Source of the DNA: an uncultured Planctomycetota bacterium
Lineage (GTDB): Bacteria; Planctomycetota; SKW154; DAOVDS01
DNA: 64,000 nucleotides
Direction of reading: 5' to 3'
NCBI GenBank assembly: GCA_964641955.1
Contig: CAZXNM010000010.1
Coordinates: forward strand, 65-64,064
Shown: positions 140 through 56,622 of the stretch, in pieces
How positions within the stretch are numbered: position 1 is the stretch's first letter
Layout: every line of letters begins with the position of its first letter
Notes under the pieces: model-generated
Databases searched by the model: none
Told to the model about the DNA's origin: nothing
What the model saw: the letters and a program-made list of their open reading frames with translations, nothing else
Program-made: the position numbers and the translations under genes

Positions 140-156
140 AGCCGCTGCAATAATCA

Positions 157-1999: not shown

Positions 2000-2051
2000 G
2001 CTTGCTCCGTCACAGTTAGGAGAAGGATTGTATTGGGGACGCGGCCCTCTG

Positions 2052-23656: not shown

Positions 23657-23716
23657 GCCCTGACTCCTTTCAAACCTTGCTAGCTATCCTTTGCCTTGAT
23701 TTCTCCTGGTCCCACT

Positions 23717-24382: not shown

Positions 24383-24398
24383 GTCAGCTCCATCCCGG

Positions 24399-26748: not shown

Positions 26749-26751
26749 TGT

Positions 26752-27436: not shown

Positions 27437-27693
27437 TTCAGATAATCACTGCCTCTCGCAGGTCCGGGATTTCAACTTCACTGCTGTTGAGGTTTATCTT
27501 CCGAATTGTTTCGTTCCTTCTCCGACAGCGTCGCGGACGGCTTCACCTGCGTATCTTCTTCAAACTCATCGCACTCAAGCACCCAGCCTTCAGGCTTTAT
27601 GTATGTACATGTTCCTCTCTTCTTGCAGCGTTCACAAATGCCCCGGGTCACAGGCAGTTACCTTCTAAAAATTCACAGAAACAGCGCCGAATT

Positions 27694-27712
27694 AAGCAAC
27701 CTGCGTGCCACT
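27694..27712 (-). promoter_or_regulatory. Sigma54 (-24/-12) promoter: minus-strand TGGCACG-cagg-TTGCT driving the operon below
   Basis: Minus-strand read of 27712..27696 is TGGCACGCAGGTTGCTT, matching the consensus TGGCACG-N4-TTGCW with GG-N10-GC spacing exact. Predicted start site near 27684, about 250 nt upstream of the first operon gene and next to an NtrC-family activator gene. Confidence 0.6.
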
Positions 27713-27737
27713 TGTGGTTAACTAAAGGAGTTGAATC

Positions 27738-27923
27738 GCAACCTCTTGCCATAAAAGGACTTGAGGTTGCACAAAGCCTTTGCCTGTCGGAGAAAGCGGG
27801 ACGACCTCTGCTGCTAGTGCAACAGCAATGCTGTCTTGCGCTGCACTAAGGCATCTAACATATTGTCAGACAAGGGCTTATGGATGTGTGCAAGGATTGA
27901 ACACTACTGATGGATTTCCATCA
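27738..27923. promoter_or_regulatory. Three palindromes upstream of the sigma54 promoter (candidate enhancer/UAS sites)
   Basis: GCAACCTC-N17-GAGGTTGC at 27738-27770, TAGTGCA-N20-TGCACTA at 27815-27848, and TGATGGA-tt-TCCATCA at 27908-27923, all 25-215 bp upstream of the -24 element. Confidence 0.4.
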
Positions 27924-27931
27924 CGCATCAG

Positions 27932-29374: not shown

Positions 29375-29429
29375 GTGCTCTGTCACCTTCCGAGGTCTTG
29401 AGGCGGGAAGCTGTTCTCTGCTGCCGGCC

Positions 29430-31274
29430 CTAGTCGCCTCGCTCGTGTACCACGGGAAGAACAATCGAGAAACTCGACCCCTTTCCCTGTTTACTCTCTA
29501 CATGGATTTCTCCTCCATGCGCCCGTATGGTGGTTTGGGCAATTGAGAGTCCCAGCCCCGTTCCCGACGCCTTTGTAGTGAAGAACGGGTCAAACAATTT
29601 CAGGATGGATTCTGATTCTATCCCAGGGCCCGTATCACCCACCTCGATTCGCACACAATTTTGCAACCTGCCATCAAGCTCCTCGCGGCCAGAAGTCGCC
29701 CTTATGGTCAAGACGCCCTTCACGGTCATGGCCTCAAGTGCATTCACCAGAAGATTCAGGAGAGCTTCGCCGAGTTGCTTCTTGTCACCTCTTATATCCG
29801 GGAGGCCATTGGCGATGTCCTTTCTGACGATGGTCTCCTGCTGGTAGGCTTTCGGCTGGACGACGAGAAATGAGTCATCAATCAGCTGCGCGATATTCAC
29901 GGTCGAGAAGACAGGTTCCTGGGGTTTGGCGAAATCGAGGAACCGGTTTATCGTCGCCTCTATCCGCTTTACCTGCAACATGGCAAGCTCGAAATCCTTT
30001 GTGTATTCTGGCGAGATTTCTATCTCGCTTTTCACCGACTGCAGAAAGAGCTTCAATGACGAAAGCGGCGTTCTTATCTCATGCGTGACACCGGCTGCCA
30101 GCTGCCCAAGTGCGGCAAGCCGCTGCGACCTGGCTGCCGCTTCCTCGGTTCTGCGCAGCTTCACGTCGGTTTCTTTCAATTCCGTCTGTGTTGACTCTAC
30201 TTTTTCCTCGAGGCTGTTGTGTTTGGCCTGAAGCTGACTCGCCATGTTGCCAAACGCAGTGTAGAGAACGCCTATCTCGTCGCCGCGGTCCGTCTTCAAC
30301 TGCGTACCCGTAAAATCGCCTCTCGCCAACATGTCCGCCGCGCTGCTCAGTCGTTCTACTGGCCTGGCGATGTAGTACCCGAGGAGCCAAGCAACTGCGA
30401 TGGCGGCGAGGATTGACAGGATAAATACTGTAAGCACGTAGCGCTTCAGTCGATCCGAGCTTTCAAATGCTTCATCCCTGTCCTGCTCGACCACGAGATG
30501 CCAATCCGTGCCAGAAACACCACGTGTTGCTCCAAGAACTTCGATACCCCTGTAGTCCGTGTAGGCACTCTTCCGGTTTCTCTTGCCAAAGATGTTCTTG
30601 AAGCTCCCCGACTGGGCTATGCTCTCAGAAAGAATCCGTTGGGGCTCCTTGTGCGCAAGGAAGGTTCCCTCCTTGTCCACAAGATAGCATTCGCCTGTCC
30701 GGCCAAGAGAAACCTTGAGCACTATGGAAGAAATCGCCTCCGTGCCCACCACTTCGCAGATAACACCACGGATTGCGCCTTTCTCGCCGTATATCGGCGC
30801 TGAAATCCGAAAGACAGATTCGTTCCAGTGCGGCTCGATACTGATTTCGGACAGATACAGCTCGCCAGCCCGGGCCCGTTTGAACCATTCCTCGCCTGAA
30901 TGGTCTCCCTTTTCCGGGGAGTTATTGAAAAGAGTGTCCCCATCCTTGTTGACAATCATAAATCCCCTGTAAACCCCGTATTCTTTCCCGACAAGCTCGA
31001 TATACGGGCGCATCAGGGACGGGTCCATCGCTTTCACCACAGACGAACCGGCTATTACCCGAGCATCCGCCTTGCGTTCCAAGAGCCACCTTTCAACCAG
31101 GTCCCTCTTGTCGTTGGCAACATTTTCCAGGCGGCTGGTTACCATGTTCGTGATAAGCTCATCCGCAGTGTGCACTGAGAAGACACTTACTACTCCCAAA
31201 GGCACGATTGATACTATCATGAAGAGTAGCATTACTCTGACGTGAAGCCTGTTGAGGAATCCGACAGCTGCCAA
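29430..31274 (-). CDS. Sensor histidine kinase (extracytoplasmic Cache/PDC-like sensor, HAMP, HisKA, HATPase_c)
   Basis: N-terminal transmembrane helix, a sensor domain of about 250 aa, a second helix, HAMP, an H-box (LAAGVTHEIRTPLSSL), and N/G1/G2 boxes (LLNLLVNALEAM, DTGPGI, GTGLGLSI). Its 3' end overlaps the regulator gene. Confidence 0.8.
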   Translation of the reverse strand: MAAVGFLNRLHVRVMLLFMIVSIVPLGVVSVFSVHTADELITNMVTSRLENVANDKRDLVERWLLERKADARVIAGSSVVKAMDPSLMRPYIELVGKEYGVYRGFMIVNKDGDTLFNNSPEKGDHSGEEWFKRARAGELYLSEISIEPHWNESVFRISAPIYGEKGAIRGVICEVVGTEAISSIVLKVSLGRTGECYLVDKEGTFLAHKEPQRILSESIAQSGSFKNIFGKRNRKSAYTDYRGIEVLGATRGVSGTDWHLVVEQDRDEAFESSDRLKRYVLTVFILSILAAIAVAWLLGYYIARPVERLSSAADMLARGDFTGTQLKTDRGDEIGVLYTAFGNMASQLQAKHNSLEEKVESTQTELKETDVKLRRTEEAAARSQRLAALGQLAAGVTHEIRTPLSSLKLFLQSVKSEIEISPEYTKDFELAMLQVKRIEATINRFLDFAKPQEPVFSTVNIAQLIDDSFLVVQPKAYQQETIVRKDIANGLPDIRGDKKQLGEALLNLLVNALEAMTVKGVLTIRATSGREELDGRLQNCVRIEVGDTGPGIESESILKLFDPFFTTKASGTGLGLSIAQTTIRAHGGEIHVESKQGKGSSFSIVLPVVHERGD

Positions 31275-31356
31275 GAGAACTTCCTTCCCTGTTGTAGCTT
31301 ATGGCCTCACTGACATTCTACCAGTTGTTTCGCCAGCGTCAACCTTGCCTGCGAGG

Positions 31357-31392
31357 GAAATGGCGGCAGGTTGTCAAACCTGCCGCCATTTC
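31357..31392. terminator. 14-bp perfect hairpin (GAAATGGCGGCAGG-ttgtcaaa-CCTGCCGCCATTTC) between the GltB-like paralog 2 and the kinase gene
   Basis: Seen directly in sequence. A T-run follows on the plus strand only. It may act as a terminator or processing element separating the gdh-gltB2 unit from the two-component genes. Confidence 0.35.
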
Positions 31393-31420
31393 TTTATCCT
31401 TCGCTCGAAGCAGTGCCCGC

Positions 31421-33010
31421 TCACGAATTTAGGATTTCTTCCGCCTGAGACCTATAAGCATCCATGACGTATGGAATGCCCGTAATATCGGTGCATTCCC
31501 TCGAAAGGCTCATGAGGTCATCGCGGGAAATCTTGTCGAGAGTGAAGTGCCGGGCTCCAGCCATCAGCTGCTGAAGTCCGACCGACATCTTCTGGGCGTA
31601 CGAGTATATTCCAATCGCGCCCAGCGGTATGTTCTTCATCTCGTCCTTGCCGACTATGTCTGCCACTTCCTCCCAGCAGACGAAAAGCTCTTCCGGCTTC
31701 GCGCCGTAGCCTTCAAGTGACTTGGGCAGATTGTTGTCCTTGATCCACTCGGCTGCGTTCTTGCCGACCATACCGGGTATCATAAGCGCGCGTCCCATGC
31801 AGATTGCCTTCACGTAAGGAGCGCCAAGCGCGATAGCCTTGAAGGCATGGTCTTCTGCGCTGAATCCGCCTGCAAACGCCAGGTCGGGAACCCTCTCGCC
31901 ATTCTTGGTCAGCTTATCGGCAAACTGGACTGCCGCAGCGTGCAGGTGCAGAGTCGGCACGCCCCACTCGTTCATCATGCGCCACGGGCTCATGCCGGTA
32001 CCGCCACCAGCGCCGTCTATCGTGAGAAGGTCAACTTCGCCCTTGCTGCCCCATTTGAGGGCCATGGCGAGTTCGCGAAGACCGTAGGCCCCAGTCTTGA
32101 GAGTGATTCTCTCGAATCCGATCTTACGCAAACGGTCACATTCCGCGAGGAACGACTCCTCGCTTATGAAGCCCAGCCTGCTGTGACGCTCGAATTCCTT
32201 TATCGCTCCGTCCTTGAATGCGGCCTGAACGACAGGATCCTCGGGGTCGGGTGTCACGATGTAGCCCCGGCCCTTCAACTGCAGTGCTCTTTCCAGTGAG
32301 CCTATCTTTATCTCGCCGCCGATGCATTTCGCGCCCTGGCCCCACTTGAGTTCTATCGTGTTCAGGCCGTGCTTCTCGTGAACGTACTCCCCAACACCAA
32401 GCCGGGTGTCTTCTACGTTCATCTGAACGAGAATCTCACCGTAACCTCTGTGGTAGCGCTTGTAGACCTCCATGCGGCGGTCCATGTCGGGCGCTTTGAC
32501 GACCTTGCCGTTCTTGAGCTCAAGCTTGGGGTCAATACCGCAGACATTCTCGCCACATACGATGGTGCATCCGGCCAGTGCCGCGCCGATTGCGAAGTGC
32601 TCCCAGTTCGCCCGTGCTATTTCCGTTGAACCCAGCGCACCTGTAAAGAACGGGGCGAGCATCTTGACTTTCTTCTCCCAGCCGTACTCGGTTTCAACAC
32701 TTACAGCGGGAAAAGTACATGTGTCAGGGTTTGCATCTACGCCCTCAGGGAGCCCATCGCCGCCAAGTGCGTAACCCTGGATGTTAAGGTGCGTGTAGTC
32801 AACGGGATAGTCCTTGTCGGCACCTGCGGTTACCTTGCCGAACGGTCCCGGGTAGATAAGTTCCCTGCCCCGGAAAGTTGCCAGCCAGACTTCGCAAGTA
32901 CCGCGACAACCATCAACGCACCGTGAACATAAACCTGAAAGCGGCGCCACGCTCCGCGACCTGTTTGAGGTCTTGGTGGCATCATCTGCATTTGGCCTCT
33001 GCAGCGTCAT
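31421..33010 (-). CDS. Standalone glutamate-synthase central-domain (FMN/Fe-S) protein, paralog 2
   Basis: Colinear with the 22079..23656 product (CSRCVDGCRGTCEV ... MSPWRMMNEWGVP ... same C-terminal region) at about 40% identity. AAGGAAGG RBS. Confidence 0.8.
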   Translation of the reverse strand: MTLQRPNADDATKTSNRSRSVAPLSGLCSRCVDGCRGTCEVWLATFRGRELIYPGPFGKVTAGADKDYPVDYTHLNIQGYALGGDGLPEGVDANPDTCTFPAVSVETEYGWEKKVKMLAPFFTGALGSTEIARANWEHFAIGAALAGCTIVCGENVCGIDPKLELKNGKVVKAPDMDRRMEVYKRYHRGYGEILVQMNVEDTRLGVGEYVHEKHGLNTIELKWGQGAKCIGGEIKIGSLERALQLKGRGYIVTPDPEDPVVQAAFKDGAIKEFERHSRLGFISEESFLAECDRLRKIGFERITLKTGAYGLRELAMALKWGSKGEVDLLTIDGAGGGTGMSPWRMMNEWGVPTLHLHAAAVQFADKLTKNGERVPDLAFAGGFSAEDHAFKAIALGAPYVKAICMGRALMIPGMVGKNAAEWIKDNNLPKSLEGYGAKPEELFVCWEEVADIVGKDEMKNIPLGAIGIYSYAQKMSVGLQQLMAGARHFTLDKISRDDLMSLSRECTDITGIPYVMDAYRSQAEEILNS

Positions 33011-41606: not shown

Positions 41607-42431
41607 TTAAGAAGGATACCTGCCCGCCATCATTATCATGGCCCGGACTATGCGGTAAGCCTCCCGGTAGTTGGGCGCTGTGTACGACACGGTCGCAGCC
41701 GACTTCCTTTCCGTTCCCGGAATCATAGCAGCGCAGTCAGCCATGCCGGTGCGCACGAAATCGACTTCTACAGCGACCTTACCCTCGATAACCACCGGTG
41801 CGACAAAGACCCTCTCACTGAGGGCTTTCCTGGCGGTTTCTGCAATTTGCCGGCATGCCTCGGTCGGGTGCAGGCTCTCGGCCGCCACGCTCCCGATACC
41901 ACGCTTGGTCTGTGCAGTCAGAATCTCCGGGAAGAGTTCCTTTGCCTCTCTACAGACTGCCTCATCGCCTGCCACCATGACGACCGGGACGCCGAAGCTG
42001 CCGGCGAGCGCGGCGTTCAGGCCTGTCTCGCCAGTGGGCTTGCCGTTAATTGTTATGCCGTGGACGTGGCGGCCGCTTATGGTGTGGTTCAGCACACCGT
42101 CAGCCGTGCCGCGCATCGAGTGGTAGCCTGCGAACATCGCAGCGTTGAAGGAGTCATCCAATCCCTGCATCATGCCCAGCGGCCGCAGGTCGCCCTGGAT
42201 TAACCTCACCATTTCCGGCAGTTCTTCGTGCAGCAGGTTGGTGCCCCCGCCGTGGGCATCGTTTACGACGATTTCTTTCGCACCGGCTTCGATGGCGCCG
42301 TTCGCAGCGGCGGCAACCTCGCCTGTCATGAGCTTCCGTGCGCGCTCGTAATCGAAACCTTCCCTCGTGGTCTGCTTCCCCAGCATGATGCCGCTCACAC
42401 CTTCAATATCCGCCGAGATATACACCTTCAT
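41607..42431 (-). CDS. dppA: D-aminopeptidase DppA (peptidase M55)
   Basis: MKVYISADIEGVSGI... with M55 family motifs. 274 aa. Confidence 0.75.
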   Translation of the reverse strand: MKVYISADIEGVSGIMLGKQTTREGFDYERARKLMTGEVAAAANGAIEAGAKEIVVNDAHGGGTNLLHEELPEMVRLIQGDLRPLGMMQGLDDSFNAAMFAGYHSMRGTADGVLNHTISGRHVHGITINGKPTGETGLNAALAGSFGVPVVMVAGDEAVCREAKELFPEILTAQTKRGIGSVAAESLHPTEACRQIAETARKALSERVFVAPVVIEGKVAVEVDFVRTGMADCAAMIPGTERKSAATVSYTAPNYREAYRIVRAMIMMAGRYPS

Positions 42432-43762
42432 TTCGATTTCTCCTCTTTTTCCTCATTTCCCGGAATGCCCCAGAGAATGATACAGTTTGTTTCGGAACCA
42501 GAGCCGTGATAGATTGCTGTCCGGCTTGTACTGCTGCCGATTCCTGCCGCAAGGAACCTGCCATCGCGACTGAAATCAAGAGAAAGGACAAAAGGCGGGT
42601 TCTCATTATCCGCACATGGAACAAGTGTCCGCAGGCATTCGCCTGTAACCGTATCCCACATGCGAATATTCTTGCCCTGACAACCTGCGGCAAGTATCCG
42701 GCCCTTGGGATAGAATGCCAGAGATGGCGATCCTGCGTCTATTGGATGGTACTCGCCAAGCTTGTGACAGCGTTTACCGGTACGCCAGTTCCAGAGCAGC
42801 ACAAGGCCGTCCTCGCACGCCGCGCCAAGCAGACTGCCATCCGGGCTGAATCTGATGTTGTAGATGGTTGCCTCCCGGTGAGAAATTGCCTCGCCTTCAA
42901 GTGTCCGGATGCATCTCCCGGTTTCGACATCCCATATCTTTACCTGGTCGTAGTCATCCGAAGAAGCAACAGCCTTGCCGTCAGGGCTGAATACGACACA
43001 GCATGCCGCCTCCTCGTGGCCGGTTAGAGTCTTGACATGGTCCCATGTACTCGTGTTCCATATATGTACGACTCCCTCATCAAACCCACCGCAGGAAGCT
43101 AGCAGTTTTCCATCCGGACTGAAAGCTACGGACCTCATTTTATTCTTACATTTCAGAATCTGAAGGCATCTTCCGGTATCGGCATTCCAGACGTTCACTG
43201 CTTTGTCCGCCCCAGCGGATGCAATTAGCCTTCCGTCGGGGCTGAAAACAGCGGAGTACGCTCCTCCTTTGTGTGCACTCATCAAGCGGGTACATCTGCC
43301 AGTCGCAATATCCCATACCCTTACAGTCTCATCTTCGCTTGCACTTACAAGCAGCTTCCCATCCGGGCTGAAGGCAACCGAATAGACCGGCTTGCAGTGC
43401 TCACGAAGTGTTTGCAGCTTCTGCAGATATTTCCAGGGGTATAAATACTGGTCAAGCACTGCTTTAATACGATAGCGGACTTCAGCATCATGTAATTCAT
43501 CAGAGCGCTTTTGAAGGAATGCTACAAGTTCTTTGCGAATTTCAAATGCTTCTTTCAGAAGAACGCATAAAGCTTTTGTCGCCTCTTCGCGGGTTTTATA
43601 GTCCTCCGAAGCCATTTCCATGAGCAGTTTGTCGGCCTGGGATTTTAGTTCGTTGAGGGTTATTTTCCGCGGGGATGAGTCCTGCGGTTCTGGAATGTTC
43701 GGTGACTGGGTGCAGGCACCAAGTATGAATGCACAGACGGTAATTTCCAGGAACTGTCTCAA
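42428..43762 (-). CDS. WD40-repeat lipoprotein (7 WD repeats) with an N-terminal helical region
   Basis: Repeated SVAFSPDGKLLAS.G.D..V.IW units. The ORF track extends to 43891. An in-frame TTG at 43762 preceded by AGAGG gives M-RQFLEITVCAFILGAC (signal plus lipobox). The 3' end overlaps the dppA start by 4 nt. Confidence 0.65.
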   Translation of the reverse strand: MRQFLEITVCAFILGACTQSPNIPEPQDSSPRKITLNELKSQADKLLMEMASEDYKTREEATKALCVLLKEAFEIRKELVAFLQKRSDELHDAEVRYRIKAVLDQYLYPWKYLQKLQTLREHCKPVYSVAFSPDGKLLVSASEDETVRVWDIATGRCTRLMSAHKGGAYSAVFSPDGRLIASAGADKAVNVWNADTGRCLQILKCKNKMRSVAFSPDGKLLASCGGFDEGVVHIWNTSTWDHVKTLTGHEEAACCVVFSPDGKAVASSDDYDQVKIWDVETGRCIRTLEGEAISHREATIYNIRFSPDGSLLGAACEDGLVLLWNWRTGKRCHKLGEYHPIDAGSPSLAFYPKGRILAAGCQGKNIRMWDTVTGECLRTLVPCADNENPPFVLSLDFSRDGRFLAAGIGSSTSRTAIYHGSGSETNCIILWGIPGNEEKEEKSK

Positions 43763-43777
43763 CGCAACCTCTATTCG

Positions 43778-44877
43778 TTGAGCAAACGGTCGTATTTGGC
43801 GGCTTCCCTGATTTTTTCCATGACGTCGATGCCCTGTGTGCATTTCTCCACGCACTCGCCGCACTGCGAGCATTCGGCGGCCGGCTTCCACTTCTCGTTC
43901 TTCCTGATAAACGGCACGAGATCGCGGAAGTACTCCTTAGCCGCCTCCTCGCCCGCAACGCGCTCGCGGTCGAGAGTTCTGACATAGAAGAAGATGGGCA
44001 CGCCGGAAGGACACGGCATGCAGTAGCCGCAGGAGGTGCAGAATTTCTCTCCGAGCGCCTCGAACTGCGCGCGAATCTTCTGAACTGTCTCCTCGTCGGG
44101 CTCGACATCGACCTCGGCTGCCGCGACATTCTCCTCGACCTCGGCAATCCTGCCCATGCCGGATAGCGCGACAGTCAGGCCGGGAGTCGCGAAATTGTGG
44201 CGAAGTGCGGTCGCTATGAGCGACTCGCCCTCCCCTGCGGCGTCGGAGAAGAACTCCCTGCCTTGCGGCACGAGGCCGCCGGCGAGCGAATTCATGGAGA
44301 CCGCGCCTATGCCCGCCTCGCGTGCGGCATCAATCCCCTCGCGCCGGAAGGGTGCGTTAATCACGTTGTAGCCCATTGTCACGCCTTCGAAAAGGCCCGT
44401 TTCTATAATGCGGCGGATGACATCGCCGGGCGCGTGGGTCGTGAAGCAGATATGGCGAATCAGCCCTTCCTCTTTCGCCTTGACCGCTCCTTCATAAGGC
44501 CCGCCGGGTGCGGTCACCTTCTCGAACTGTTCCCACGAGGCGATGTTCCACATCTGGTAGAACTCGATGCGGTCGGTCCGGAACTGTTCGAGCGATTCCT
44601 CGAGCCGCTTGCGCATTTCCCCGGCGGTCGCATCGCGCCCGATATGCGACTTCGTGGACAAGTAAGTCCTATCCCGGATTCCTTCGAGAGCTTGCCCGAT
44701 AAGCCCTTCGCTGCGGTCGTCGCAGTAGCCGGGCGCGGTGTCTATGTAGTTTATACCCAGCTCGACCGCCCGCCTGACGACGGCGATCGCTTCATCATCA
44801 TCGTCGGTGAAACGCATCCCGCCGAAACCAAGCACCGAGACTTCCTTGCCTGTTTTACCGAATGCCTTGTACCTCAT
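43778..44877 (-). CDS. Aldo/keto reductase fused to a C-terminal Fe-S (ferredoxin-like) domain
   Basis: AKR core (GFGGMRF, YIDTAPGY) plus a C-terminal Cys-rich tail (CTSCGYCMPCP ... CSQCGECVEKC). Confidence 0.75.
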
Positions 44878-45001
44878 CGCTAACCCGCCCTGCCAAGAAT
44901 TATTGAGTAATCCAGTGTATCTAACGGTTCGCGGCAGCAGGATGCAAGCGTCTTTATGGAGCTATTGAGAGAATGGCTGGCAGTATGAGGAGTTCGGAGT
45001 T

Positions 45002-45547
45002 CTATTTGTGCCGTCGGGGTATCTCGCCCGAGTCCCTAGTCTGAATGGTAAGCGCTTTCCGGAGCTGCTCGCGCGTAAGCTTGCCGACGGCAAGCAGGAG
45101 TTCGCCGAGGCGCGGGCTTATGCCTGTCTCTCGCAGGATTTCCTGGCGCTGCAGCGCATGCTTGAGCGTCGCCTCGTCTATGTAGGCACATTCCACGAGA
45201 ATTTCGCCCAAAAGCCTTCTTCCCGTGCTTTCGGAGGCCTGTTTACTGGTGAAGTCGCCCATCTTCTCCTGAATTGACAGAACCTCGGAGACCTGCTCTT
45301 CTGTCATCTTGCCGCGCTCCAGCATAATGTCGCCGAGCTGGCGCGGCTTCTTGGATTCCTGCTGTGCTTCGAGGCAATCGTCAAGCTGTTCCTTGCTTAT
45401 CATGCCCATGCTCAGCGCAATCATGCCGAAGAGCCTTCTGCTGGGTGACTTGCCGCTGGCCAAAGCTGCCTCCATTACACTCGGATACCGTACTAGTCGC
45501 CGAATACTATATGCTGAAAAAACCGGAATGTCAAGATTCTCGGCCAT
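45002..45547 (-). CDS. Protein built of four tandem MshEN/T2SSE_N-like motifs (predicted c-di-GMP binding)
   Basis: RLFGMIALSMGMISKEQLDDCLEAQ, RQLGDIMLERGKMTEEQVSEVLSIQ, RRLLGEILVECAYIDEATLKHALQRQ and PRLGELLLAVGKLTREQLRKALTIQ each match RLGxxLLxxGLIxxxxLxxxLxxQ. ATG at 45547; the track's upstream extension is antisense to the neighbouring gene. Confidence 0.5.
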   Translation of the reverse strand: MAENLDIPVFSAYSIRRLVRYPSVMEAALASGKSPSRRLFGMIALSMGMISKEQLDDCLEAQQESKKPRQLGDIMLERGKMTEEQVSEVLSIQEKMGDFTSKQASESTGRRLLGEILVECAYIDEATLKHALQRQEILRETGISPRLGELLLAVGKLTREQLRKALTIQTRDSGEIPRRHK

Positions 45548-45603
45548 ATTAGAGGATGGCTGCAGCCTTGCACAAACGCCGGCGCAGTCTTCCCGGTTTG
45601 TGC

Positions 45604-45632
45604 TTGCATCATCCGGTGGAGAATTGTAATCT
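45604..45632 (+). promoter_or_regulatory. Candidate sigma70 promoter (TTGCAT-N17-TAATCT) for the tandem paralog operon
   Basis: Hexamers read from sequence. About 50 nt upstream of the ATG at 45687, which has GGAGAGGAG at spacing 6. Confidence 0.4.
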
Positions 45633-45686
45633 CGGTGCAAATTTGTCACCAAGAACGGTAATAAACAAACCGGAGAGGAGAATTCC

Positions 45687-46907
45687 ATGAGAAGGCCGAT
45701 TTTTCTAATGCTCGCATTGTCGCTTGTGGCCATTTTCGCGCTGGCCGAGGGCAAGGAAGAACCGTTCCTGCAGTTCGCCAAGGGCAATTACTGGGAATAC
45801 GAGGTCGCCGGTCCATTCGACGAGACGAAGAATGGCAAGATGGAAATAGTGGAAATTGGTGCTGACGGCGCTTTCAAGATGACTCTCAAGGACTTCGGTC
45901 CAATCGGAAGAGAGATGAAAGGCAAACTCACCAAGGAATACCTCACCTGGAACTGGGGAGGAGAGTTCGACTGGAAGGTCCTGAAGTTCGGGGTTAAGAA
46001 GGGCGACAGTTGGGTATCAAAGATAAGCCGCGGAACGCGAGAGATGACTCTCAAGTCAAAGGTGATAGCTGTCGAAGACCTCAAGACACCGGCCGGGACT
46101 TTTAAAAACTGCCTGAAGATTGAGAATTACCCGGAGGAGGAGCCTCAAGAGGTTGTACACACGTGGTGGGCCAACGGAGTAGGGCTGCTGAAGCTCGCCG
46201 TCGCGGAAGCAGGCAGGTCGGAGATGAGCTGGACGCTCAAGTCCTACAAGGTCGGTCCGGACATTAGCGACAAGCAGCTCAAGGAGATGGTCGGGAAAGC
46301 GGACATCATAGCCCTGGTCTCGATTCCGAAAGATGCCGAGAAGTCCGATAAGGCGGAGGTAACTGTTACCGGCATATACAAGGGCAAAGTCGAGACGAAA
46401 GATGGCAAGATGGAAATCACCCAGCCCGGTAAGGACTCGAAGCTTAAAAGACTCAAGGAAGGTGATTACCTCGCCTTCCTGAAGAAGGACGGCGACAAGC
46501 TTGTACTCGCATGCGACACTTTGAAATCTCAAGAGACGCTGACGAAACAGCTTGTCAAGCTTCTCAAACCGGAGGATAAGGGCGACGAACTCCTCAAGAG
46601 CCTGTGCGACAAAGCCGAAACCGTGGCGGCAGTCGAAGTCGTGAAACTCGAAGACAGGGGCGAGTTCAAGTATTACGTTGTGAAAGTGCTCTCAGCAGTG
46701 AAGAATGCCGAGGAAGGCAAGCACCTCGATGTTCTCGTGCCTGCGGGCGTAACATTGAAAGAAAACGCAAAACACATTCTGTTTCTCGTTGCGACCAAAG
46801 AACATGGGCGCAGAATGATGCAGCTTGTGGATGTGGTCAAGGGAGTCCTCGACCACAAGGAAGAAACCCTCAAGAAGATCGAGGAGATTGTCAAGAGTTC
46901 CAAGTAA
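45687..46907 (+). CDS. Secreted protein, tandem paralog family member 1
   Basis: Signal peptide MRRPIFLMLALSLVAIFALA, then the conserved EGKEEPFLQFAKGNYWEYEV ... TPAGTFKNCLKIENYP ... WWANGVGLLKL ... VEVVKLEDRGEFKYYVVKVLSAVK ... EGKHLDVL. Confidence 0.6.
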   Translation: MRRPIFLMLALSLVAIFALAEGKEEPFLQFAKGNYWEYEVAGPFDETKNGKMEIVEIGADGAFKMTLKDFGPIGREMKGKLTKEYLTWNWGGEFDWKVLKFGVKKGDSWVSKISRGTREMTLKSKVIAVEDLKTPAGTFKNCLKIENYPEEEPQEVVHTWWANGVGLLKLAVAEAGRSEMSWTLKSYKVGPDISDKQLKEMVGKADIIALVSIPKDAEKSDKAEVTVTGIYKGKVETKDGKMEITQPGKDSKLKRLKEGDYLAFLKKDGDKLVLACDTLKSQETLTKQLVKLLKPEDKGDELLKSLCDKAETVAAVEVVKLEDRGEFKYYVVKVLSAVKNAEEGKHLDVLVPAGVTLKENAKHILFLVATKEHGRRMMQLVDVVKGVLDHKEETLKKIEEIVKSSK

Positions 46908-46937
46908 CCGTCCAGATCAAACAGGAGACGAAGAATC

Positions 46938-48170
46938 GTGAAAAAACTGGCCGTTGTGTTGATACTGGCCGCCGGCGCCTGCGGCATTGCGCTGGCGGAA
47001 GGCAAGGAAGAGCCGTTCCTGCAGCTCGCCAAGGGCAACTACTGGAAGTTCGACGTGGAGAAGCGCGGCAACAAGACTTCCGGCAAGATGGAAGTGACGG
47101 AGATGGGCAAGGAGGGCAAGATAAAGGTCAAGCTCACCGACATGAGCGGCCCCATGGGCAATGAGATGGTCATGGAGATGTCAGGCGGACATCTCATCTG
47201 GGAAATGGATGAGCGCAGGGCCAAGTTCCGCTGGAAAGTACTCAAGCTAAACGCGAAGAAGGATGACTCCTGGGAGTCGGATGTAGCTGAATTTGACGAG
47301 AAGATGGTGCTGACGTCCAAGGTCACGGCAGTCGAGGATGTCAAGACGCCGGCCGGGACGATAAAGGGCTGCCTCAAGGTGGAGAACTACCCTTCCGGAG
47401 AGCCCGACAGGAAAGTCATCATGTGGTGGGCGAAAGGCGTTGGGCTCGTCAAGCTCGAAGTAACCAGGCGCGCAGAAGTGAGCGAGAGCTGGACGCTCAC
47501 TGCCTACAAGGTCGGGCCGGACATAAGCGACGAGAAGCTCAAGGAGATGGTCGATAAGTCGGATGTCATTGCGCTCGTCTCGGTACCGAAAGAAACCGCC
47601 AAGTCCGACAAGGTGCAGGTAAAATTGACCGGCAGCTACAAGGGCGAGCCGGAAACGCAGGACGGCAAGATGGAAATCGCCCGGCCCGGAAAAGACTCGA
47701 AGCTCAAGGCGCTTAATGAAGGCGATTTTATCGTGTTCCTGAAGAAGGACGGCGACAAGCTCTCTCTCCTCTACGACGCCGTCAGGTCGCAGAAGGAGCT
47801 TACCGACCGGCTGACCAAGCTCCTGAAGCCCGGCGATGAGGCCGAGGATGCGCTTGGCAAACTTTGCGGCAAAGCGGAAGTCATCGCCGCGGCGGAAATT
47901 GTGAAGCTCGAAGACAGGGGAACGTTCAAGTACTACGTCGTCAAGGTCTTATCTGCTCTTAAAGGCAGCGCAAAGGAAGGGAAGCATCTGGATGTATTGA
48001 GCCCGCAGGGTCTCGACCTGAAAGAAGGCGGGAAGCACATCCTGTTCCTCGAAGCGACGGAGCAGTCAGGCCGGAAGATGTGGCGGCTGGCCGACCTTGT
48101 CAGCGGCGCGGCCGAGTTGAAGGATGACCTGCTCAAGAAAGTCAAAGAATTTGTGAAAGGCTCGAAGTAA
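46938..48170 (+). CDS. Secreted protein, tandem paralog family member 2
   Basis: GTG start 30 nt after member 1. Colinear with members 1 and 3 at about 50% identity. Confidence 0.6.
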   Translation: MKKLAVVLILAAGACGIALAEGKEEPFLQLAKGNYWKFDVEKRGNKTSGKMEVTEMGKEGKIKVKLTDMSGPMGNEMVMEMSGGHLIWEMDERRAKFRWKVLKLNAKKDDSWESDVAEFDEKMVLTSKVTAVEDVKTPAGTIKGCLKVENYPSGEPDRKVIMWWAKGVGLVKLEVTRRAEVSESWTLTAYKVGPDISDEKLKEMVDKSDVIALVSVPKETAKSDKVQVKLTGSYKGEPETQDGKMEIARPGKDSKLKALNEGDFIVFLKKDGDKLSLLYDAVRSQKELTDRLTKLLKPGDEAEDALGKLCGKAEVIAAAEIVKLEDRGTFKYYVVKVLSALKGSAKEGKHLDVLSPQGLDLKEGGKHILFLEATEQSGRKMWRLADLVSGAAELKDDLLKKVKEFVKGSK

Positions 48171-48195
48171 CAAGCCCCGCAAGGAAGGAGAGACC

Positions 48196-49452
48196 ATGAA
48201 GAAAGCGGTTGTGACGCTATTCGCGCTTCTGTCGCTGTGCGCGGTCGCGCTGGCGGAAGGCAAGGAAGAGCCGTTCCTGCAGCTCGCAAAGGGCAATTTC
48301 TGGAAATATGACGTCGTGGAGCACGGGGACAAGTCGTCCGGAAAACTCGAAGTAGAAGAAGTCAAGGCAGATGGGACGGCCAAAATCAAGGTCACTGAAA
48401 TGGCCGACTTCCCCGCCTCTATCAACTGGAAGATGACCAAAGAGTATCTTGTCTGGGAACTGTCGGAGGCGGGAATTTCCTTCAAGTGGAACATGCTTAA
48501 GTTCGGTGCGAAAAAGAACGACTCCTGGACAACCGATATGATGCCAGAGGGAATCGAGGTGCCCGATGGCGTACCGCCCGAACAGCTCAAGCTCACCATC
48601 AAATCGACAGTTGTAGCAGTAGAGGATGTCACCACGCCTGCCGGGACCTTCAAGGGATGCCTGAAAGTCAAGCACGTGACTCCCGGACCGAACGAGGGAG
48701 TATATATGTGGTGGGCAAAGGACATCGGCCTTGTCAAACTGCTGGTGGAAAAGGCAAACAACGATGTGGACACAAGCTGGACTCTCACCGGCTACAAGGC
48801 CGGGCCGGATATCACCGATAAGCAGCTAAAGGAGATGGTCCAGAAGGCCGAAATGGTCGTAATCATCCACGTTGACAAGGAAGCGCTCGGCGAGGAAGAC
48901 GTGCAGGTAAGTCTCAGGGGCGCGTACAAGGGCGACCCGAAGGCAAAGGACGGGAAGATAGTCATCACCCAGCCGGAGAAAGGCTCAAAGATAAAGGCGC
49001 TCGAAGAGGGCGATTACGTCGTGTTCCTGAAGAAGGACGGCGAGAAGCTGGTGCTTTCAGGCGCTGCTGTCAAGTCCCAGAAGGACTTAATCGCCCGGCT
49101 CGACAAGCTCTTCAAGCCGGAGTCCGGCGATGAGAAGCTCAAGCAGCTCTGCGAGAAGGCGGAAATCGTCATCGTGGCCGAGGCCGTCAAGCTCGAAGAC
49201 AGGGGCAGCTACAAGTACTATGTCGTGAAAATCGTATCGGGCCTGAAGGGAGCCGACGAGGGCAAGCACATGGATGTCCTTTGCCCGCAGGGCGTGACGC
49301 TCAAGGAAGGCGCGAAGTATATCATGTTCCTTGCCAGGACGGAGGAGACGGGCCGTAAGATGGCGCGTCCCGTGGATGTCGTCCGCGGCATTATCGAGCA
49401 CGACGAAGACGTCGTCAAGAAGCTGAAAGAGACCGTAGGAGGCTCCAAGTAG
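48196..49452 (+). CDS. Secreted protein, tandem paralog family member 3
   Basis: ATG with AGGAGAG RBS, 25 nt after member 2. Colinear with members 1 and 2. Confidence 0.6.
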   Translation: MKKAVVTLFALLSLCAVALAEGKEEPFLQLAKGNFWKYDVVEHGDKSSGKLEVEEVKADGTAKIKVTEMADFPASINWKMTKEYLVWELSEAGISFKWNMLKFGAKKNDSWTTDMMPEGIEVPDGVPPEQLKLTIKSTVVAVEDVTTPAGTFKGCLKVKHVTPGPNEGVYMWWAKDIGLVKLLVEKANNDVDTSWTLTGYKAGPDITDKQLKEMVQKAEMVVIIHVDKEALGEEDVQVSLRGAYKGDPKAKDGKIVITQPEKGSKIKALEEGDYVVFLKKDGEKLVLSGAAVKSQKDLIARLDKLFKPESGDEKLKQLCEKAEIVIVAEAVKLEDRGSYKYYVVKIVSGLKGADEGKHMDVLCPQGVTLKEGAKYIMFLARTEETGRKMARPVDVVRGIIEHDEDVVKKLKETVGGSK

Positions 49453-49465
49453 CGGGTTGCCGGGT

Positions 49466-50407
49466 TCAGGACGGCGCCTGTTCCAGCCGCTCGCGCGCGA
49501 GCTTAACGATTGTCCTTGCCGTGTCGCAGGACAGAGCCCCGTCGAAGGCTTCCCATCTCGGCGCGCGGTTTGCCTCGATGATTCTCAGTCCGTCTGAGGC
49601 CGTCTCCCCGATATCGACGCCGAAGATGCCTATTTTGCTCACGTTGCTGCATGCGTAATCGACTATGTCGGGCCGGTCCACGGCGACGAAAGTGCCGCCC
49701 TGCGCCGCATTAGCCGCCACCGAGCCCTCGGCCGCTATCTTGCGCGCAATCCCCAGCGACCGCCCGAAAAACAGGATGACCCGGAACTCGTTCACGAACT
49801 CCTCGAACGGTTGCAGCATGAGCGGCGTCTTCCTTTTCTTGCTGTAAAAGCTCCTCACATACTGCAGCAATCCCTGTTTGTCGTCCAGCTTCACAACACC
49901 CTTGCCGCCGCTGCCGCCTATCGGCTTGGCTATCAGGGGAAAGCGCCCCGCCCTCTCAAGCCTCTTCGCCAGGTCTTCCGCTGCGGCGCGGCCGAACGCG
50001 AGGTACGTGGTCGAGCCGACTCCCTCGCTGAATCTCTTAATGCTGGTCCCGAGCTTGCCGCTCCTCCTACCGCCTTGAAGTCCGATGCGGTCGAGAATGT
50101 CGCAGCCCCGCAACGCGAGGCAGCGCAGCGTCGCATTGAGCCCGCCGCCGAGCCGGTATGTGGACCTGACTATCAGGGAATCGATTTCCGGCATTGGCCG
50201 GCCTTCCTGATAAAGGCTCGGAGCTTCTTCCCCGCGCGGCAGCTCGACGGACACGAGGTTGGTATTTATCAGGAACACCTCCCCGTATATCTCGCGTCCC
50301 ACCTCCAACAGCCTGCGCGTTTCGTAGGTCAGCGCGCTTTCGCCCCGGCCCCAGTTGTTGGCGATAAGGCTGCTGACAAGTCCCAGCGTTTTTCCGCCTC
50401 GCGCCAT
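49466..50407 (-). CDS. RimK-like ATP-grasp ligase
   Basis: ATP-grasp motifs (PLIAKPIGGSGGKGV; GVDIGETASDGLRIIEANRAP). 313 aa. Confidence 0.65.
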   Translation of the reverse strand: MARGGKTLGLVSSLIANNWGRGESALTYETRRLLEVGREIYGEVFLINTNLVSVELPRGEEAPSLYQEGRPMPEIDSLIVRSTYRLGGGLNATLRCLALRGCDILDRIGLQGGRRSGKLGTSIKRFSEGVGSTTYLAFGRAAAEDLAKRLERAGRFPLIAKPIGGSGGKGVVKLDDKQGLLQYVRSFYSKKRKTPLMLQPFEEFVNEFRVILFFGRSLGIARKIAAEGSVAANAAQGGTFVAVDRPDIVDYACSNVSKIGIFGVDIGETASDGLRIIEANRAPRWEAFDGALSCDTARTIVKLARERLEQAPS

Positions 50408-52985: not shown

Positions 52986-54431
52986 GTGGAAGAATACTAC
53001 GAAGAAAGACTGAAGAAGGCTGAAGAACTCCGGGAAAAGGGCATTGACCCTTACGGCCACAGGTTCGACGGCACCGCGCCCATAGAAGACGTTGTCGCAA
53101 ACTTCACGGAGGGCAGCGAGGAGAAAATCCGCATCGCCGGCAGGATTATGGCCATGCGAAGCCACGGCAAGGCCGCCTTCTTCGACGTGCACGACAGGAC
53201 CGGCAAGGTACAGGCATACGTCAAGAGGAACGCGATTGGCGACGAGGCTTTCGAGGTCTTCAGGATGCTCGACATCGGGGACATTATCGGCCTCGAGGGG
53301 CCGGTCGCGAAGACGCGCACGGGAGAAATTACCGTCTTCGTCGAGAAGTTCGAGCTTCTCTCCAAGGCGCTCATGCCCATGCCGGAAAAGTGGCACGGCC
53401 TGAAGGATGTCGAGCTGAGGTACCGCAGGCGATACGTTGACCTGGTCGCCAACCCGCAGTCAAAAGAAACCTTCATGCGCAGAATAAAGGCCATTGCGCG
53501 CATAAGGGAAATCCTGCACGCACGCGGGTTCATCGAGGTGGAAACCCCGGTAATGCACTCGATACCCGGCGGGGCGGCGGCGAGGCCTTTCGTTACGCAC
53601 CACAACGCGCTGGATATCGACCTGTACCTGCGCATAGCCCTCGAACTACACCTGAAGCGCCTGCTCGTCGGCGGACTCGAGCGCGTCTTCGAAATCAGCC
53701 GCGTGTTCCGCAACGAGGGCATCTCCACGAGGCATTCGCCCGAGTTCACCATGCTGGAACTCTACCAGGCTTACGGCAACTACGAAACCATGATGGAGAT
53801 AACCGAAGAGGTTTTCTCTACGCTCGCCGTCGAGGTATGCGGCAGCCACGAAGTCACTTACGGAGGCAAGACTTTCGACCTCAAGCCCCCCTACCCTAAG
53901 CGCACTTACGCCGAGCTGTTCGAAGAGCACGCGGGTTTCTCCATGAACGACGAGGCGGCAGTGAGGAAGAACGTGGCCGAACTCGAGCAGACTGTTGACG
54001 GCGGCCTCAGCGTATGGGCCATGGTTGATGTGCTCTTCGAGCACTACGTTGAGCCGAAGCTCGACGGGCCGGTCTTCGTGATTGACTATCCTGTCGCCAT
54101 CTGCCCGCTGGCGAAGCAGAAGACGGGCAGTCCCGAAATCGCCGAGCGCTTCGAGCTTTACATAGGCTCCGTCGAAGTGGCCAATGCATTCACCGAGCTT
54201 AACGACCCAGTAGAACAGAGAAAGCGCTTCGAGGAGCAGGCGCAGCACCTGGCGGACGTGACCGGCAAAATCGACGAGGACTACGTTCTCGCCCTGAGCT
54301 ACGGGATGCCGCCTGCGGGCGGGCTCGGGATAGGAATCGACCGGTTGGTCATGCTTCTCACGGACAGTCATTCGATACGCGACGTAATCCTGTTCCCGCT
54401 CCTCAAACCTCCTGACAAGGCGAAACAGTAA
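52986..54431 (+). CDS. lysS: Lysine--tRNA ligase (class II)
   Basis: N-terminal anticodon-binding OB fold (RIMAMRSHGKAAFFDVHDRTGKVQ) and class II motifs 1-3 (the last being GGLGIGIDRLVMLLT). 481 aa, ends at TAA. Confidence 0.9.
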   Translation: MEEYYEERLKKAEELREKGIDPYGHRFDGTAPIEDVVANFTEGSEEKIRIAGRIMAMRSHGKAAFFDVHDRTGKVQAYVKRNAIGDEAFEVFRMLDIGDIIGLEGPVAKTRTGEITVFVEKFELLSKALMPMPEKWHGLKDVELRYRRRYVDLVANPQSKETFMRRIKAIARIREILHARGFIEVETPVMHSIPGGAAARPFVTHHNALDIDLYLRIALELHLKRLLVGGLERVFEISRVFRNEGISTRHSPEFTMLELYQAYGNYETMMEITEEVFSTLAVEVCGSHEVTYGGKTFDLKPPYPKRTYAELFEEHAGFSMNDEAAVRKNVAELEQTVDGGLSVWAMVDVLFEHYVEPKLDGPVFVIDYPVAICPLAKQKTGSPEIAERFELYIGSVEVANAFTELNDPVEQRKRFEEQAQHLADVTGKIDEDYVLALSYGMPPAGGLGIGIDRLVMLLTDSHSIRDVILFPLLKPPDKAKQ

Positions 54432-55877
54432 GTGTACAAGCTTTTCATAGCACTCAGGTACCTCAAGCGCAGAATAATCACCTACATCGCCATTGCCGGC
54501 GTCAGCGTGGGCGTCATGGTCCTGGTAATCGTGCTGTCGGTCATGGGCGGGTTCCAGCGGGAATTCCACGAGAAAATCCGCGGCACCATGGCCGATATCA
54601 TAATCACCCAAGAAGGCTTCGCAATGAAGAACCATGACGAGATAATGAAGAAGGTGGTGAAGATACCCGGCGTCAAAGGTGTCGCGCCCTTTGTCCAGAA
54701 CATTATCCTTATCAAGGGTCTTCACATCGACTTCGGGTTCATCAAGGGCATCGACCCGCTCGAAGAGCCGAAAGTGAGTCAAATCAGGGAATACCTTCTC
54801 CGCCGGGAAGAAACGGAGATTATCGCCCGCCACGACCAGTTGGATATCTGGATTGAAGATGCCGAAAGCACCGAGAAATTGGCAAAACAGAGGGGCATTG
54901 ACCTGTCGCAAAACCCGCTATACAAATCATATTTGCAGAGGCTCGATTCCTGGCGCGTTGAGTTCGATGAGGTCAGCGACAAGCATGACAAGCTCAACGA
55001 CCGCAAGCCCATGACTGATGAGGAAATCCTGCTGCTTTTCAGCGAAAGAAGCACGGACCTCCCGGGCATAATAGTCGGCATCGAGATGTTCAAGTACTAC
55101 CAGATGGAGGTAGGAAGCGAAGTCACGCTCCTGACGGCCGCAAGCCTCGACGTCGAGGAGGCGAGCCAGCAGCGGTTCGAGGTACTCGGCGCGTTCCGGA
55201 CCGGGATGTTCGAGAACGACTTCCGCTACGTCTACGCGCAGCTATGGGAAGCCCAGCAGTTCGTCGGCGTGCCGGACTGCGTCTCCGGCGTCAGCGTGAA
55301 GCTTGACGACTACCGCAGGGCGGACGAAATCAAGCCGGTCATCGAGCGCGCCATTAACGCCGACCCATACCTCGGCCTTGCCGTGCGCACGTGGAAGGAG
55401 CAGAACAAGACGCTCCTGCAGGCCGTTCAGATGGAGAAGTGGCTGCTGGCGTTCATAATCTTTTTCATCGTGATAGTCGCCGGCTTCACCATCGTATCCA
55501 TACTGGCCATGATGGTAATCGAGAAGACCAAGGACCTCGGGATTATCAAGTCGCTCGGCGGCACCATGACCGGCATCATGAGCATATTCCTCGTCGCCGG
55601 CTCCTTCATAGGAATCGTCGGCAGCGCAATCGGCACTTTCCTCGGACTCATGTTCGTCTACAACATTAACGAGATTGCGGACCTGATAGAGGACGTTACC
55701 GGCTACCACCCCTTCCCGCCGAACGTCTATTACCTGACCGAAATCCCGACGATAGTTGACTACGGCGAGATAGCACAGGTCGTTGTTCCCACTATCGTCG
55801 TTTCCTTTATTTTCGCGCTCTACCCGGCGCTGAAGGCATCGAGGCTTAATCCCGTCGAGGCGCTGCGTTATGAGTAA
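54432..55877 (+). CDS. FtsX-family ABC-transporter permease (LolC/LolE-like)
   Basis: GTG start directly after the lysS stop. N-terminal helix, a large periplasmic MacB-like domain, then three C-terminal helices (FtsX). 481 aa. Confidence 0.7.
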   Translation: MYKLFIALRYLKRRIITYIAIAGVSVGVMVLVIVLSVMGGFQREFHEKIRGTMADIIITQEGFAMKNHDEIMKKVVKIPGVKGVAPFVQNIILIKGLHIDFGFIKGIDPLEEPKVSQIREYLLRREETEIIARHDQLDIWIEDAESTEKLAKQRGIDLSQNPLYKSYLQRLDSWRVEFDEVSDKHDKLNDRKPMTDEEILLLFSERSTDLPGIIVGIEMFKYYQMEVGSEVTLLTAASLDVEEASQQRFEVLGAFRTGMFENDFRYVYAQLWEAQQFVGVPDCVSGVSVKLDDYRRADEIKPVIERAINADPYLGLAVRTWKEQNKTLLQAVQMEKWLLAFIIFFIVIVAGFTIVSILAMMVIEKTKDLGIIKSLGGTMTGIMSIFLVAGSFIGIVGSAIGTFLGLMFVYNINEIADLIEDVTGYHPFPPNVYYLTEIPTIVDYGEIAQVVVPTIVVSFIFALYPALKASRLNPVEALRYE

Positions 55878-56622
55878 GTCGGATGCCCCATCGCAGGCGA
55901 AAGGCGAGGAGCTGGTTCGGGCCACAGGCCTGAAGAAAAGCTACTTCGCCGGCAAGCGCGAGCTGCCGGTCGTGAAGGGCGTCAATATGAATATATCGCG
56001 CGGCGAAGTGCTCATGATATGCGGCCCGAGCGGCGCCGGCAAGAGCACTCTGCTGCATATGCTGGGCCTTCTGGACCCGCCGTCGGCGGGCGATGTCTTC
56101 TACGAGGGGGAAAACCTCACGTCGGCTCCACCCCGGCGCCAGTCTTCCGTTCGCAACCGCCGGATAGGCTTCGTGTTCCAATTCTATCACCTTCTGCCCG
56201 ACCTCGACGTCGTCGAGAATACGCTGCTTCCGCTCATGATAAGGGAGTCTACCTTCTCCTGGTTCGGGGCAAGGCGCCGCTACCGAGAGAAGGTCGAGAA
56301 GGTGCTCGCAAGCATGGGGCTGGGCGAGCGCCTCAAGCACAGGCCTTCTCAGCTTTCCGGCGGCGAGAGGCAGCGCGTGGCTATAGCGCGGGCGCTTATT
56401 AACGACCCGGAAGTCCTCTTCTGCGACGAGCCCACGGGCAATCTCGACACCAGAACTGCCGAGGAGATTCTCAAGGTGCTCTGGCGAATCAGGGAAGAGT
56501 TCAGCCAGACGCTCGTGGTCGTAACCCACAATCGCACCTTGGCCGAGCAGGGCTCGCGGCGCCTGAACATGATTGACGGCAAACTCTACCGCCCCTCAGA
56601 GCGCGACCTGCCATCCAGTTGA
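55870..56622 (+). CDS. lolD: ABC-transporter ATP-binding protein (LolD-like)
   Basis: Walker A GPSGAGKST, signature LSGGERQRVAIARAL, Walker B LFCDEPTGNLD. Overlaps the permease gene by 8 nt. Confidence 0.8.
   Translation: MSKSDAPSQAKGEELVRATGLKKSYFAGKRELPVVKGVNMNISRGEVLMICGPSGAGKSTLLHMLGLLDPPSAGDVFYEGENLTSAPPRRQSSVRNRRIGFVFQFYHLLPDLDVVENTLLPLMIRESTFSWFGARRRYREKVEKVLASMGLGERLKHRPSQLSGGERQRVAIARALINDPEVLFCDEPTGNLDTRTAEEILKVLWRIREEFSQTLVVVTHNRTLAEQGSRRLNMIDGKLYRPSERDLPSS

Follow-up and report, generated by a model that had tools for sequence, protein, structure and literature searches.

An old tandem array of exported proteins that join a DUF3108-like domain to two predicted OB modules in an uncultured planctomycete

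The stretch of DNA analyzed here, referred to as the window, is 64,000 nucleotides (nt) long and comes from an uncultured Planctomycetota bacterium (contig CAZXNM010000010.1, positions 65 to 64,064 of the forward strand). It contains three consecutive genes, named g1, g2, and g3 below, whose arrangement is best explained as one operon-like array of old paralogues. The architecture of their products is the same throughout: a signal peptide, a DUF3108-like domain predicted to form a barrel, and two successive predicted OB modules. In this family, a domain that is known but has no assigned function is joined to an OB module not described before. We tentatively propose that g1 to g3 act in the periplasm and bind a hydrophobic molecule of the envelope; the OB tail would dock to a partner, and the paralogues would differ in cargo via their N domains. 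As it stands, the family is a well-delimited conserved hypothetical one, with a suggestive but indirect context and no surprising mechanism. In the following, P numbers denote related proteins and L numbers the loci of relatives.

An operon-like array of diverged paralogues under purifying selection

A sequence-only reading of the window had described three consecutive signal-peptide genes encoding proteins of 406 to 418 amino acids (aa). Open reading frames (ORFs) were found at exactly the coordinates claimed (Table 1), with a gap of 30 nt between g1 and g2 (46908-46937) and one of 25 nt between g2 and g3 (48171-48195). A GGAG-type Shine-Dalgarno-like site, reading GGAGAGGAG in the case of g1, lies 7 to 10 nt upstream of each gene. 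The products are colinear, as had been noted; their identity was 58% between g1 and g2, 52% between g1 and g3, and 54% between g2 and g3, that is, 52 to 58% instead of the 45 to 55% estimated earlier. At the DNA level, the genes are 61 to 64% identical, and a direct-repeat scan of the array returned units of 1250 to 1290 nt with 60 to 80% identity. Because the DNA identity is merely 61 to 64%, a duplication created during assembly is excluded, as the sequence-only reading had also held, and g1 to g3 are true diverged paralogues.

All three proteins, as well as every full-length relative, begin with a basic n-region and a hydrophobic core followed by an AxA-type cleavage site, which in g1 to g3 falls between ALA and EGK. 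A lipoprotein status of the family was considered and rejected: the Cys found in the signal peptide is not conserved, and the AxA cleavage motif is. Since this Cys is not conserved, the sequences identify g1 to g3 as exported soluble proteins, and not lipoproteins, with a predicted signal peptide of the signal peptidase I type. The view of an extracytoplasmic family that has expanded in tandem and has no characterized function is borne out.

Two motifs had been described as invariant among the three proteins, and both are nearly so. At the N terminus, g2 reads WKFDV where the motif requires W[EK]Y[ED]V, and in the C-terminal block, g1 reads LKEN instead of LKEG. The central region had been taken as the most divergent one. 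This was not the case: the N domain was the least conserved part (49 to 54% identity), with 52 to 66% for the middle module and 58 to 61% for the C module.

The number of synonymous substitutions per site (dS) among g1 to g3 was 1.2 to 2.0 for whole genes, which is saturated, and 0.6 to 2.4 by domain, one domain being beyond estimation. The ratio of nonsynonymous to synonymous substitutions (dN/dS) was 0.20 to 0.30 overall and 0.14 to 0.52 by domain. For each window copy, separate orthologues exist in other metagenomes (Table 1), and in a neighbor-joining tree, the three copy clades group as (g3,(g2,g1)). The array arose through two successive duplications in a single lineage. The saturated dS, the low dN/dS, the copy-specific orthologues, and the kept arrangement together indicate at the sequence level that the array is old, has been retained, and is under purifying selection, with two to three copies conserved in close relatives. 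A recent gene conversion among g1 to g3 was rejected because the proportion of synonymous differences (pS) is 0.42 to 0.48 even in the conserved N-terminal motif.

Domain architecture and predicted folds

The full three-domain architecture is rare. It was found in 28 proteins among 5.8 billion clusters and, in a second search, in 19 representatives (E value < 1e-30) among 1.84 billion. When g1 to g3 were compared with Pfam and NCBIfam, only sub-threshold matches were obtained, and the single consistent one was to DUF3108_like (PF21347) at about aa 124 to 180. The window proteins scored 18.2, 19.9, and 23.8 bits against this model, each under the gathering cutoff of 27 bits; across the family, it matched 25 of the 28 members (best E value, 7e-11), some of them above the gathering cutoff. 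A profile of the family matched two structures in the PDB, 4fvs (E value, 1.6e-6) and 3fzx (E value, 1.1e-5), which are structural-genomics entries for exported proteins or lipoproteins of Bacteroidales. Both alignments pass through the block TPAG.F..C.KV...W.A.GVGLV, and it is this block and the fold that the N domain has in common with the DUF3108 and DUF3108-like proteins (PF11306 and PF21347). The known members of these two families are single-domain proteins of about 200 aa, whereas in the family described here, two OB modules come after it.

An AlphaFold2 model of full-length g2, built from a 28-sequence alignment (predicted local distance difference test score [pLDDT], 81.8), contained an all-beta N domain (aa 35 to 191) followed by two alpha/beta units. 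In a Foldseek search against the PDB, this model again matched 4fvs (E value, 4.9e-6; probability, 1.0; template modeling [TM] score, 0.46), and further matches were to RseB (E value, 1.5e-5), MucB, the ependymin-related protein EPDR1, and LolA. The profile and model matches identify the N domain as DUF3108-like, with a predicted open beta-barrel of the LolA/RseB/MucB type, the TM scores being modest. The sequence-only reading had guessed that structure prediction might reveal a lipocalin-like fold, which came close for this domain.

The C-terminal half was modeled from residues 196 to 410 of g2 (pLDDT, 87.6; predicted TM score, 0.81). It superposed on the agrin NtA structures (1jb3, 1jc7, 3i70, and 1pxu) with TM scores of 0.66 to 0.68 and a root mean square deviation (rmsd) of 3.0 Å over 124 columns. 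The rmsd was 4.1 Å for C3c and 3.8 to 4.2 Å for TIMP-1, and additional matches were to the C345C domains of C3, C4, and C5 and to the tandem-OB HIN-200 domains. In the model, the C module spans about 125 aa, with a five-stranded barrel between one helix at the N-terminal end and another at the C-terminal end. It is homologous to the middle module (hhalign, 85 to 90%; E value, about 1e-6), and the hidden Markov model (HMM) of the middle module cross-matches the C module. According to these models, the C-terminal OB module has an NTR/TIMP-like fold, which is a resemblance in fold and not a demonstrated family membership. To our knowledge, this type of OB module is otherwise known from animal extracellular proteins.

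Despite its superposition on NTR, C345C, and TIMP domains, the C module differs from them in having neither conserved cysteines and disulfides nor a free N-terminal Cys. In the family alignments (A2 and A4), the OB modules contain no invariant or nearly invariant Cys, and several members have A or T in place of the one in the motif LC.KAE. Because no Cys is conserved and the modules are internal or C-terminal, they cannot use the N-terminal-cysteine mechanism of TIMP. The Pfam NTR model (PF01759) matched 2 of the 28 family members (E value, 0.04; 14.2 bits against a cutoff of 21.9), and no Pfam TIMP match was obtained in any of the 28. A profile of the C module gave chance-level matches only against PDB sequences, and against a word-indexed protein database, it returned merely two short fragments and no informative new relatives.

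Relatives of the separate domains and recurrent duplication

Taken by itself, the N domain has about 4,200 relatives, many of which are exported proteins of about 190 aa, the others being multidomain proteins. One relative is encoded in the window at 19766-20764, a gene that had been proposed as a distant fourth paralogue. Its product shares the DUF3108-like domain with the family (hhalign, 94%; E values, 1.3e-7 and 7.4e-8, the latter over 171 columns; Pfam DUF3108_like E value, 0.0065). The relationship does not extend to the three-domain architecture, as an hmmsearch matched the N-domain model alone and neither the middle nor the C module was present. From its sequence, this protein is placed as a relative in the DUF3108-like superfamily and not as a member of the three-domain family.

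The C module was also found behind DUF6263 domains, in exported proteins that match the family profile with E values of 1e-26 to 1e-31. These are P0039, P0041, P0043, P0077, P0086, and the product of a gene in L002 (11264-12514, minus strand) that is convergent with a family member. They differ from the family in having another N-terminal domain and one OB module only. In P0041, a FecR_C/STN-like signaling domain is present as well. Because the C module accompanies two or more kinds of N-terminal domain, it is a candidate for a new bacterial domain family; neither OB module is covered by a Pfam family or matches a solved structure in sequence.

Tandem expansion has recurred independently in relatives, giving a pair in L016 and L017, three divergent copies in L007, and an ORF with three N domains in L005. 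The latter protein (P0029; L005 7669-10059; 768 to 796 aa) carries three consecutive DUF3108-like N domains on one middle-plus-C tail in a single ORF and is, as read from its sequence, an in-frame fusion of tandem units. The pair in L016 (8702-9946 and 10001-11254, and likewise in L017) is a mosaic. Its N domains are old (dS, 1.17; 60% aa identity), and its signal peptide and OB-OB tail are homogenized (dS, 0.33; 92% identity), a pattern that indicates partial gene conversion or domain-specific divergence. Because old N domains are joined to a homogenized tail in this pair, the comparison suggests that the N domain may be the specificity-determining part and the OB tail a common docking part.

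The family is lineage restricted and probably comes from Planctomycetota or a related lineage. The relative in L006 is labeled Planctomycetota, and a planctomycete-type DUF1570 protein is encoded in the window.

Loci of distant relatives and a possible role in the envelope

In more distant relatives, the family gene lies between glmU and prs (L001, L003, L004, L006, and L016/L017). It overlaps the glmU stop codon by 4 bp in the first four loci, and in L016/L017, the tandem pair follows glmU after a short gap. The assignment of GlmU relied on TIGR01173, with 451 bits against an equivalog cutoff of 367. In L001 and L003, the cluster runs on through rplY-rpsF-ssb-rpsR-rplI-dnaB-bamA-skp-lpxD-lpxC, and in L018 and L019, the family gene is convergent with lptG/lptF. 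Since glmU-linked copies are distributed over several clades of the tree, the gene probably sat between glmU and prs originally. Together with the lolCE-like and lolD-like genes of the window (Table 1), these loci link the family recurrently to genes for UDP-N-acetylglucosamine, lipid A, lipopolysaccharide (LPS) export, lipoprotein release, and BamA.

In L002, the gene for an exported WD40 protein (8389-9747, minus strand) is the divergent neighbor of a family member, and the WD40 protein encoded upstream of the array in the window is 38% identical to it over the full length, including the non-WD N-terminal region. In P0032 (L022 421-2433, on a 2.5-kb contig), the N and middle modules of the family are fused to WD40 repeats. 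An exported WD40 propeller is a possible interaction partner, which we regard as a lead and not as a demonstration.

These observations can be accommodated by the envelope-binding role proposed above. The barrel of the N domain would bind a hydrophobic envelope molecule in the periplasm, for which the acyl chains of lipoproteins, an LPS or lipid A intermediate, and a phospholipid are candidates. The OB tail would dock the protein onto its partner, perhaps the WD40 propeller. As the paralogues differ mainly in the N domain, they would therefore differ in ligand specificity, and the family would serve outer-membrane biogenesis as a carrier, adaptor, or sensor, much like LolA or RseB. The comparison with LolA, LolB, RseB, and MucB, which are periplasmic carriers or sensors of lipoproteins or lipids, involves more than the open beta-barrel predicted for these exported proteins: in RseB and MucB, the barrel is also paired with a smaller C-terminal protein-binding domain, and the family neighborhoods contain lolCD, lptFG, bamA-skp-lpxDC, and glmU. 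In contrast to these proteins, the family has no sequence similarity to them and C-terminal modules of a different fold, and its ligand binding is a prediction. A more specific version holds that a Planctomycetota-like lineage has its own periplasmic carrier or adaptor for lipids or lipoproteins, which supplements or replaces canonical factors of the LolA/LptA type, that the NTR/TIMP-like OB modules of this protein dock to an exported WD40 propeller or to Lol, Lpt, or Bam components, and that the paralogues partition cargo; taken as a whole, this version appears rather improbable. If an envelope carrier were confirmed, it would add a component not described before to outer-membrane biogenesis in a lineage that is mostly uncultured and little studied, and it would provide the first functional context for the large DUF3108/DUF3108-like superfamily.

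Several points weigh against an envelope-binding role. The TM scores of the N domain against LolA and RseB are low (0.3 to 0.46), so the likeness is at the fold level only. In the window, the array is located elsewhere than at the glmU site, the linkage of the family gene to glmU and prs may reflect no more than an insertion into a stable housekeeping operon, and three genes and a change of strand come between the array and the lolCD genes. The case for a WD40 partner comprises a single adjacency, a gene nearby, and a fusion on a 2.5-kb contig, and the genomes concerned seem to be rich in WD40 proteins. For DUF3108 and DUF3108-like proteins, the literature reports neither a ligand nor a partner or phenotype; it also contains no functional data on DUF6263 or on the structures 4FVS and 3FZX, and bacterial TIMP-like modules do not appear in it.

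The proteins could instead be periplasmic envelope-stress or signaling sensors in the style of RseB and MucB, the barrel sensing mislocalized lipid or LPS and the OB tail binding a membrane-anchored regulator, for instance an anti-sigma factor or a kinase of the Ser/Thr or histidine type. RseB and MucB rank among the best fold matches, P0041 joins the C module to a FecR_C/STN-like domain, and several kinase genes lie close to family genes: a Ser/Thr kinase gene is directly upstream of the glmU-family gene pair in L003 and L004, a histidine kinase and response regulator pair precedes it in L001, and a Ser/Thr kinase gene (Pkinase) lies about 1.2 kb downstream of the window array. However, these kinases have only a generic kinase domain in common (31 to 32% identity), kinase genes recur in the loci examined, no anti-sigma gene is adjacent, and the C domain of RseB is not an NTR-like OB fold, and we consider such a sensor unlikely. 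The idea that the window kinase is an orthologue of the glmU-linked ones is itself probably wrong, because just the kinase domain and an N-terminal region align, at 31 to 32%.

A secreted or surface binder of an external ligand, such as a glycan, a nutrient, or a surface, would act apart from envelope biogenesis, and its tandem copies would widen the ligand range. Such a role would fit a family that is exported and expanded, whose N domains are its most divergent part and occur in many stand-alone exported proteins of about 190 aa. It is set against the conserved and apparently translationally coupled linkage to glmU and prs, the lptFG neighbors, and the fact that no secretion-system or anchoring signals were seen, which make it quite unlikely.

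That the TIMP/NTR-like modules regulate, inhibit, or adapt a periplasmic protease seems very doubtful. The superposition of the C module on TIMP-1, C345C, and NtA, the faint match to Pfam NTR (E value, 0.04), and the S41 peptidase genes in L019 (Tricorn-like, a divergent neighbor) and L016 (CtpB-like, three genes upstream of glmU) would be in line with it. The TIMP mechanism, however, requires a free N-terminal Cys and disulfides, which these internal or C-terminal modules without conserved Cys do not provide; the Pfam match is under its cutoff, and no peptidase neighbor is conserved across loci.

The sequence-only reading had also considered a diversifying family, immunity-like proteins, or substrates of the adjacent RimK-like ligase, to which the tandem paralogy and an ATP-grasp adjacency conserved in a close relative would lend themselves; these are highly improbable, since dN/dS is 0.2 to 0.3 overall and 0.14 to 0.52 in every domain, dS is saturated, the copy-specific orthologues are stable (72 to 86% identity), no toxin domains were found in neighboring genes, the gene is embedded at distant loci in a housekeeping and outer-membrane biogenesis cluster, and the ligase is cytoplasmic and has no signal peptide, is convergent on the opposite strand, neighbors the family solely in a close relative (80% identity), and is absent from all distant loci.

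Neighborhood of the array in the window

The flanking genes had been read as encoding a c-di-GMP-binding MshEN protein, a RimK-like ATP-grasp protein, and a Ser/Thr kinase, and profile matches agreed in each case (Table 1). The ATP-grasp protein scored 33.3 bits against Pfam RimK (cutoff, 21) and weakly, with 57 bits, against NCBIfam rimK_fam (cutoff, 143); it is probably unrelated to the array. The mshEN and rimK-like neighbors recur in close relatives only, being kept at L020 and L021, respectively. L020 contains mshEN (minus strand) and orthologues of g2 and g3 but lacks a copy of g1 at this site, and the N terminus of its MshEN protein is orthologous to that in the window. L021 contains a g2 orthologue, a g3 orthologue, and then the rimK-like gene (minus strand), the product of which is 80% identical to that in the window.

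TABLE 1 Array genes, their parts and orthologues, and other features of the window
Feature	Position (window)	Strand	Description	Orthologues (identity)
g1	45687-46907	+	406 aa; from ORF list and alignment	P0005 (72%)
g1, signal peptide	aa 1-20		Domain HMM coordinates	
g1, DUF3108-like N domain	aa ~21-192		Domain HMM coordinates	
g1, middle OB	aa ~191-281		Domain HMM coordinates	
g1, C-terminal NTR-like OB	aa ~293-406		Domain HMM coordinates	
g2	46938-48170	+	410 aa; start codon GTG	P0002, P0003, P0004, P0011 (73-81%)
g2, signal peptide	46938-46997	+		
g2, N domain	46998-47522	+		
g2, middle OB	47523-47786	+		
g2, C-terminal OB	47787-48167	+		
g3	48196-49452	+	418 aa; architecture as in g1 and g2; 11-aa insertion in a loop of the N domain	P0007, P0009 (80-86%)
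MshE-related c-di-GMP-binding domain protein	45002-45550	-	Small; divergent, upstream; NCBIfam NF053729, 79.5 bits (cutoff, 38)	
RimK-like ATP-grasp protein	49466-50407	-	Convergent, downstream; Pfam RimK and GSH-S_ATP; no signal peptide	
WD40 beta-propeller protein	42428-43891	-	1.8 kb upstream of g1; possible partner, weak lead	
lolCE-like permease	54432-55877	+	TIGR02212, 293 bits; best match, below equivalog cutoff	
lolD-like ATPase	55870-56622	+	TIGR02211, 246 bits; best match, below equivalog cutoff	
DUF3108-like single-domain gene	19766-20764	+	Signal peptide, K/E/P-rich linker, one domain at aa ~147-325	

A candidate sigma70 promoter had been placed upstream of the array. This was not supported by the promoter scan, in which no sigma70-like site was present directly 5' of g1 on the plus strand; the sole plus-strand match upstream of g1 was weak (9/12) and located at 45301-45328. 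The best sigma70-like match of the region (TTGACA-17-TATAGT, 11/12, 45506-45534) is on the minus strand, within the predicted 5' end of the MshEN-domain gene. Since the N terminus of the MshEN gene product is conserved in L020, the sequence comparison suggests that this site is a chance match. The same scan found no terminator 3' of g3, and Rfam gave no match within 44800-49800.

The lysS-lolCE-lolD genes lie 3.5 to 7 kb downstream of the array, with lolCE-lolD at about 5 kb, on the same strand as the array and after the Ser/Thr kinase gene and lysS. In this cluster (52986-56622, plus strand), lysS is followed directly by the lolCE-like and lolD-like genes, and the ends abut or overlap at 54431/54432 and 55870-55877. 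In the relatives, S41-family peptidases are encoded near family members at two unrelated loci, a Tricorn-like one in L019 (371-3637, minus strand) and a CtpB-like one in L016 (2299-4509, minus strand), which bear on the protease-adaptor role alone.

Elsewhere in the window, an ORF of 1475 aa at 1992-6419 (plus strand) had no Pfam match at an E value of <= 1e-5. A cluster at 22079-33010 (minus strand) encodes two Glu_synthase-domain proteins and a NuoF-like flavoprotein with 2Fe-2S and 4Fe-4S subunits, as well as a Cache histidine kinase and a sigma54-type response regulator.

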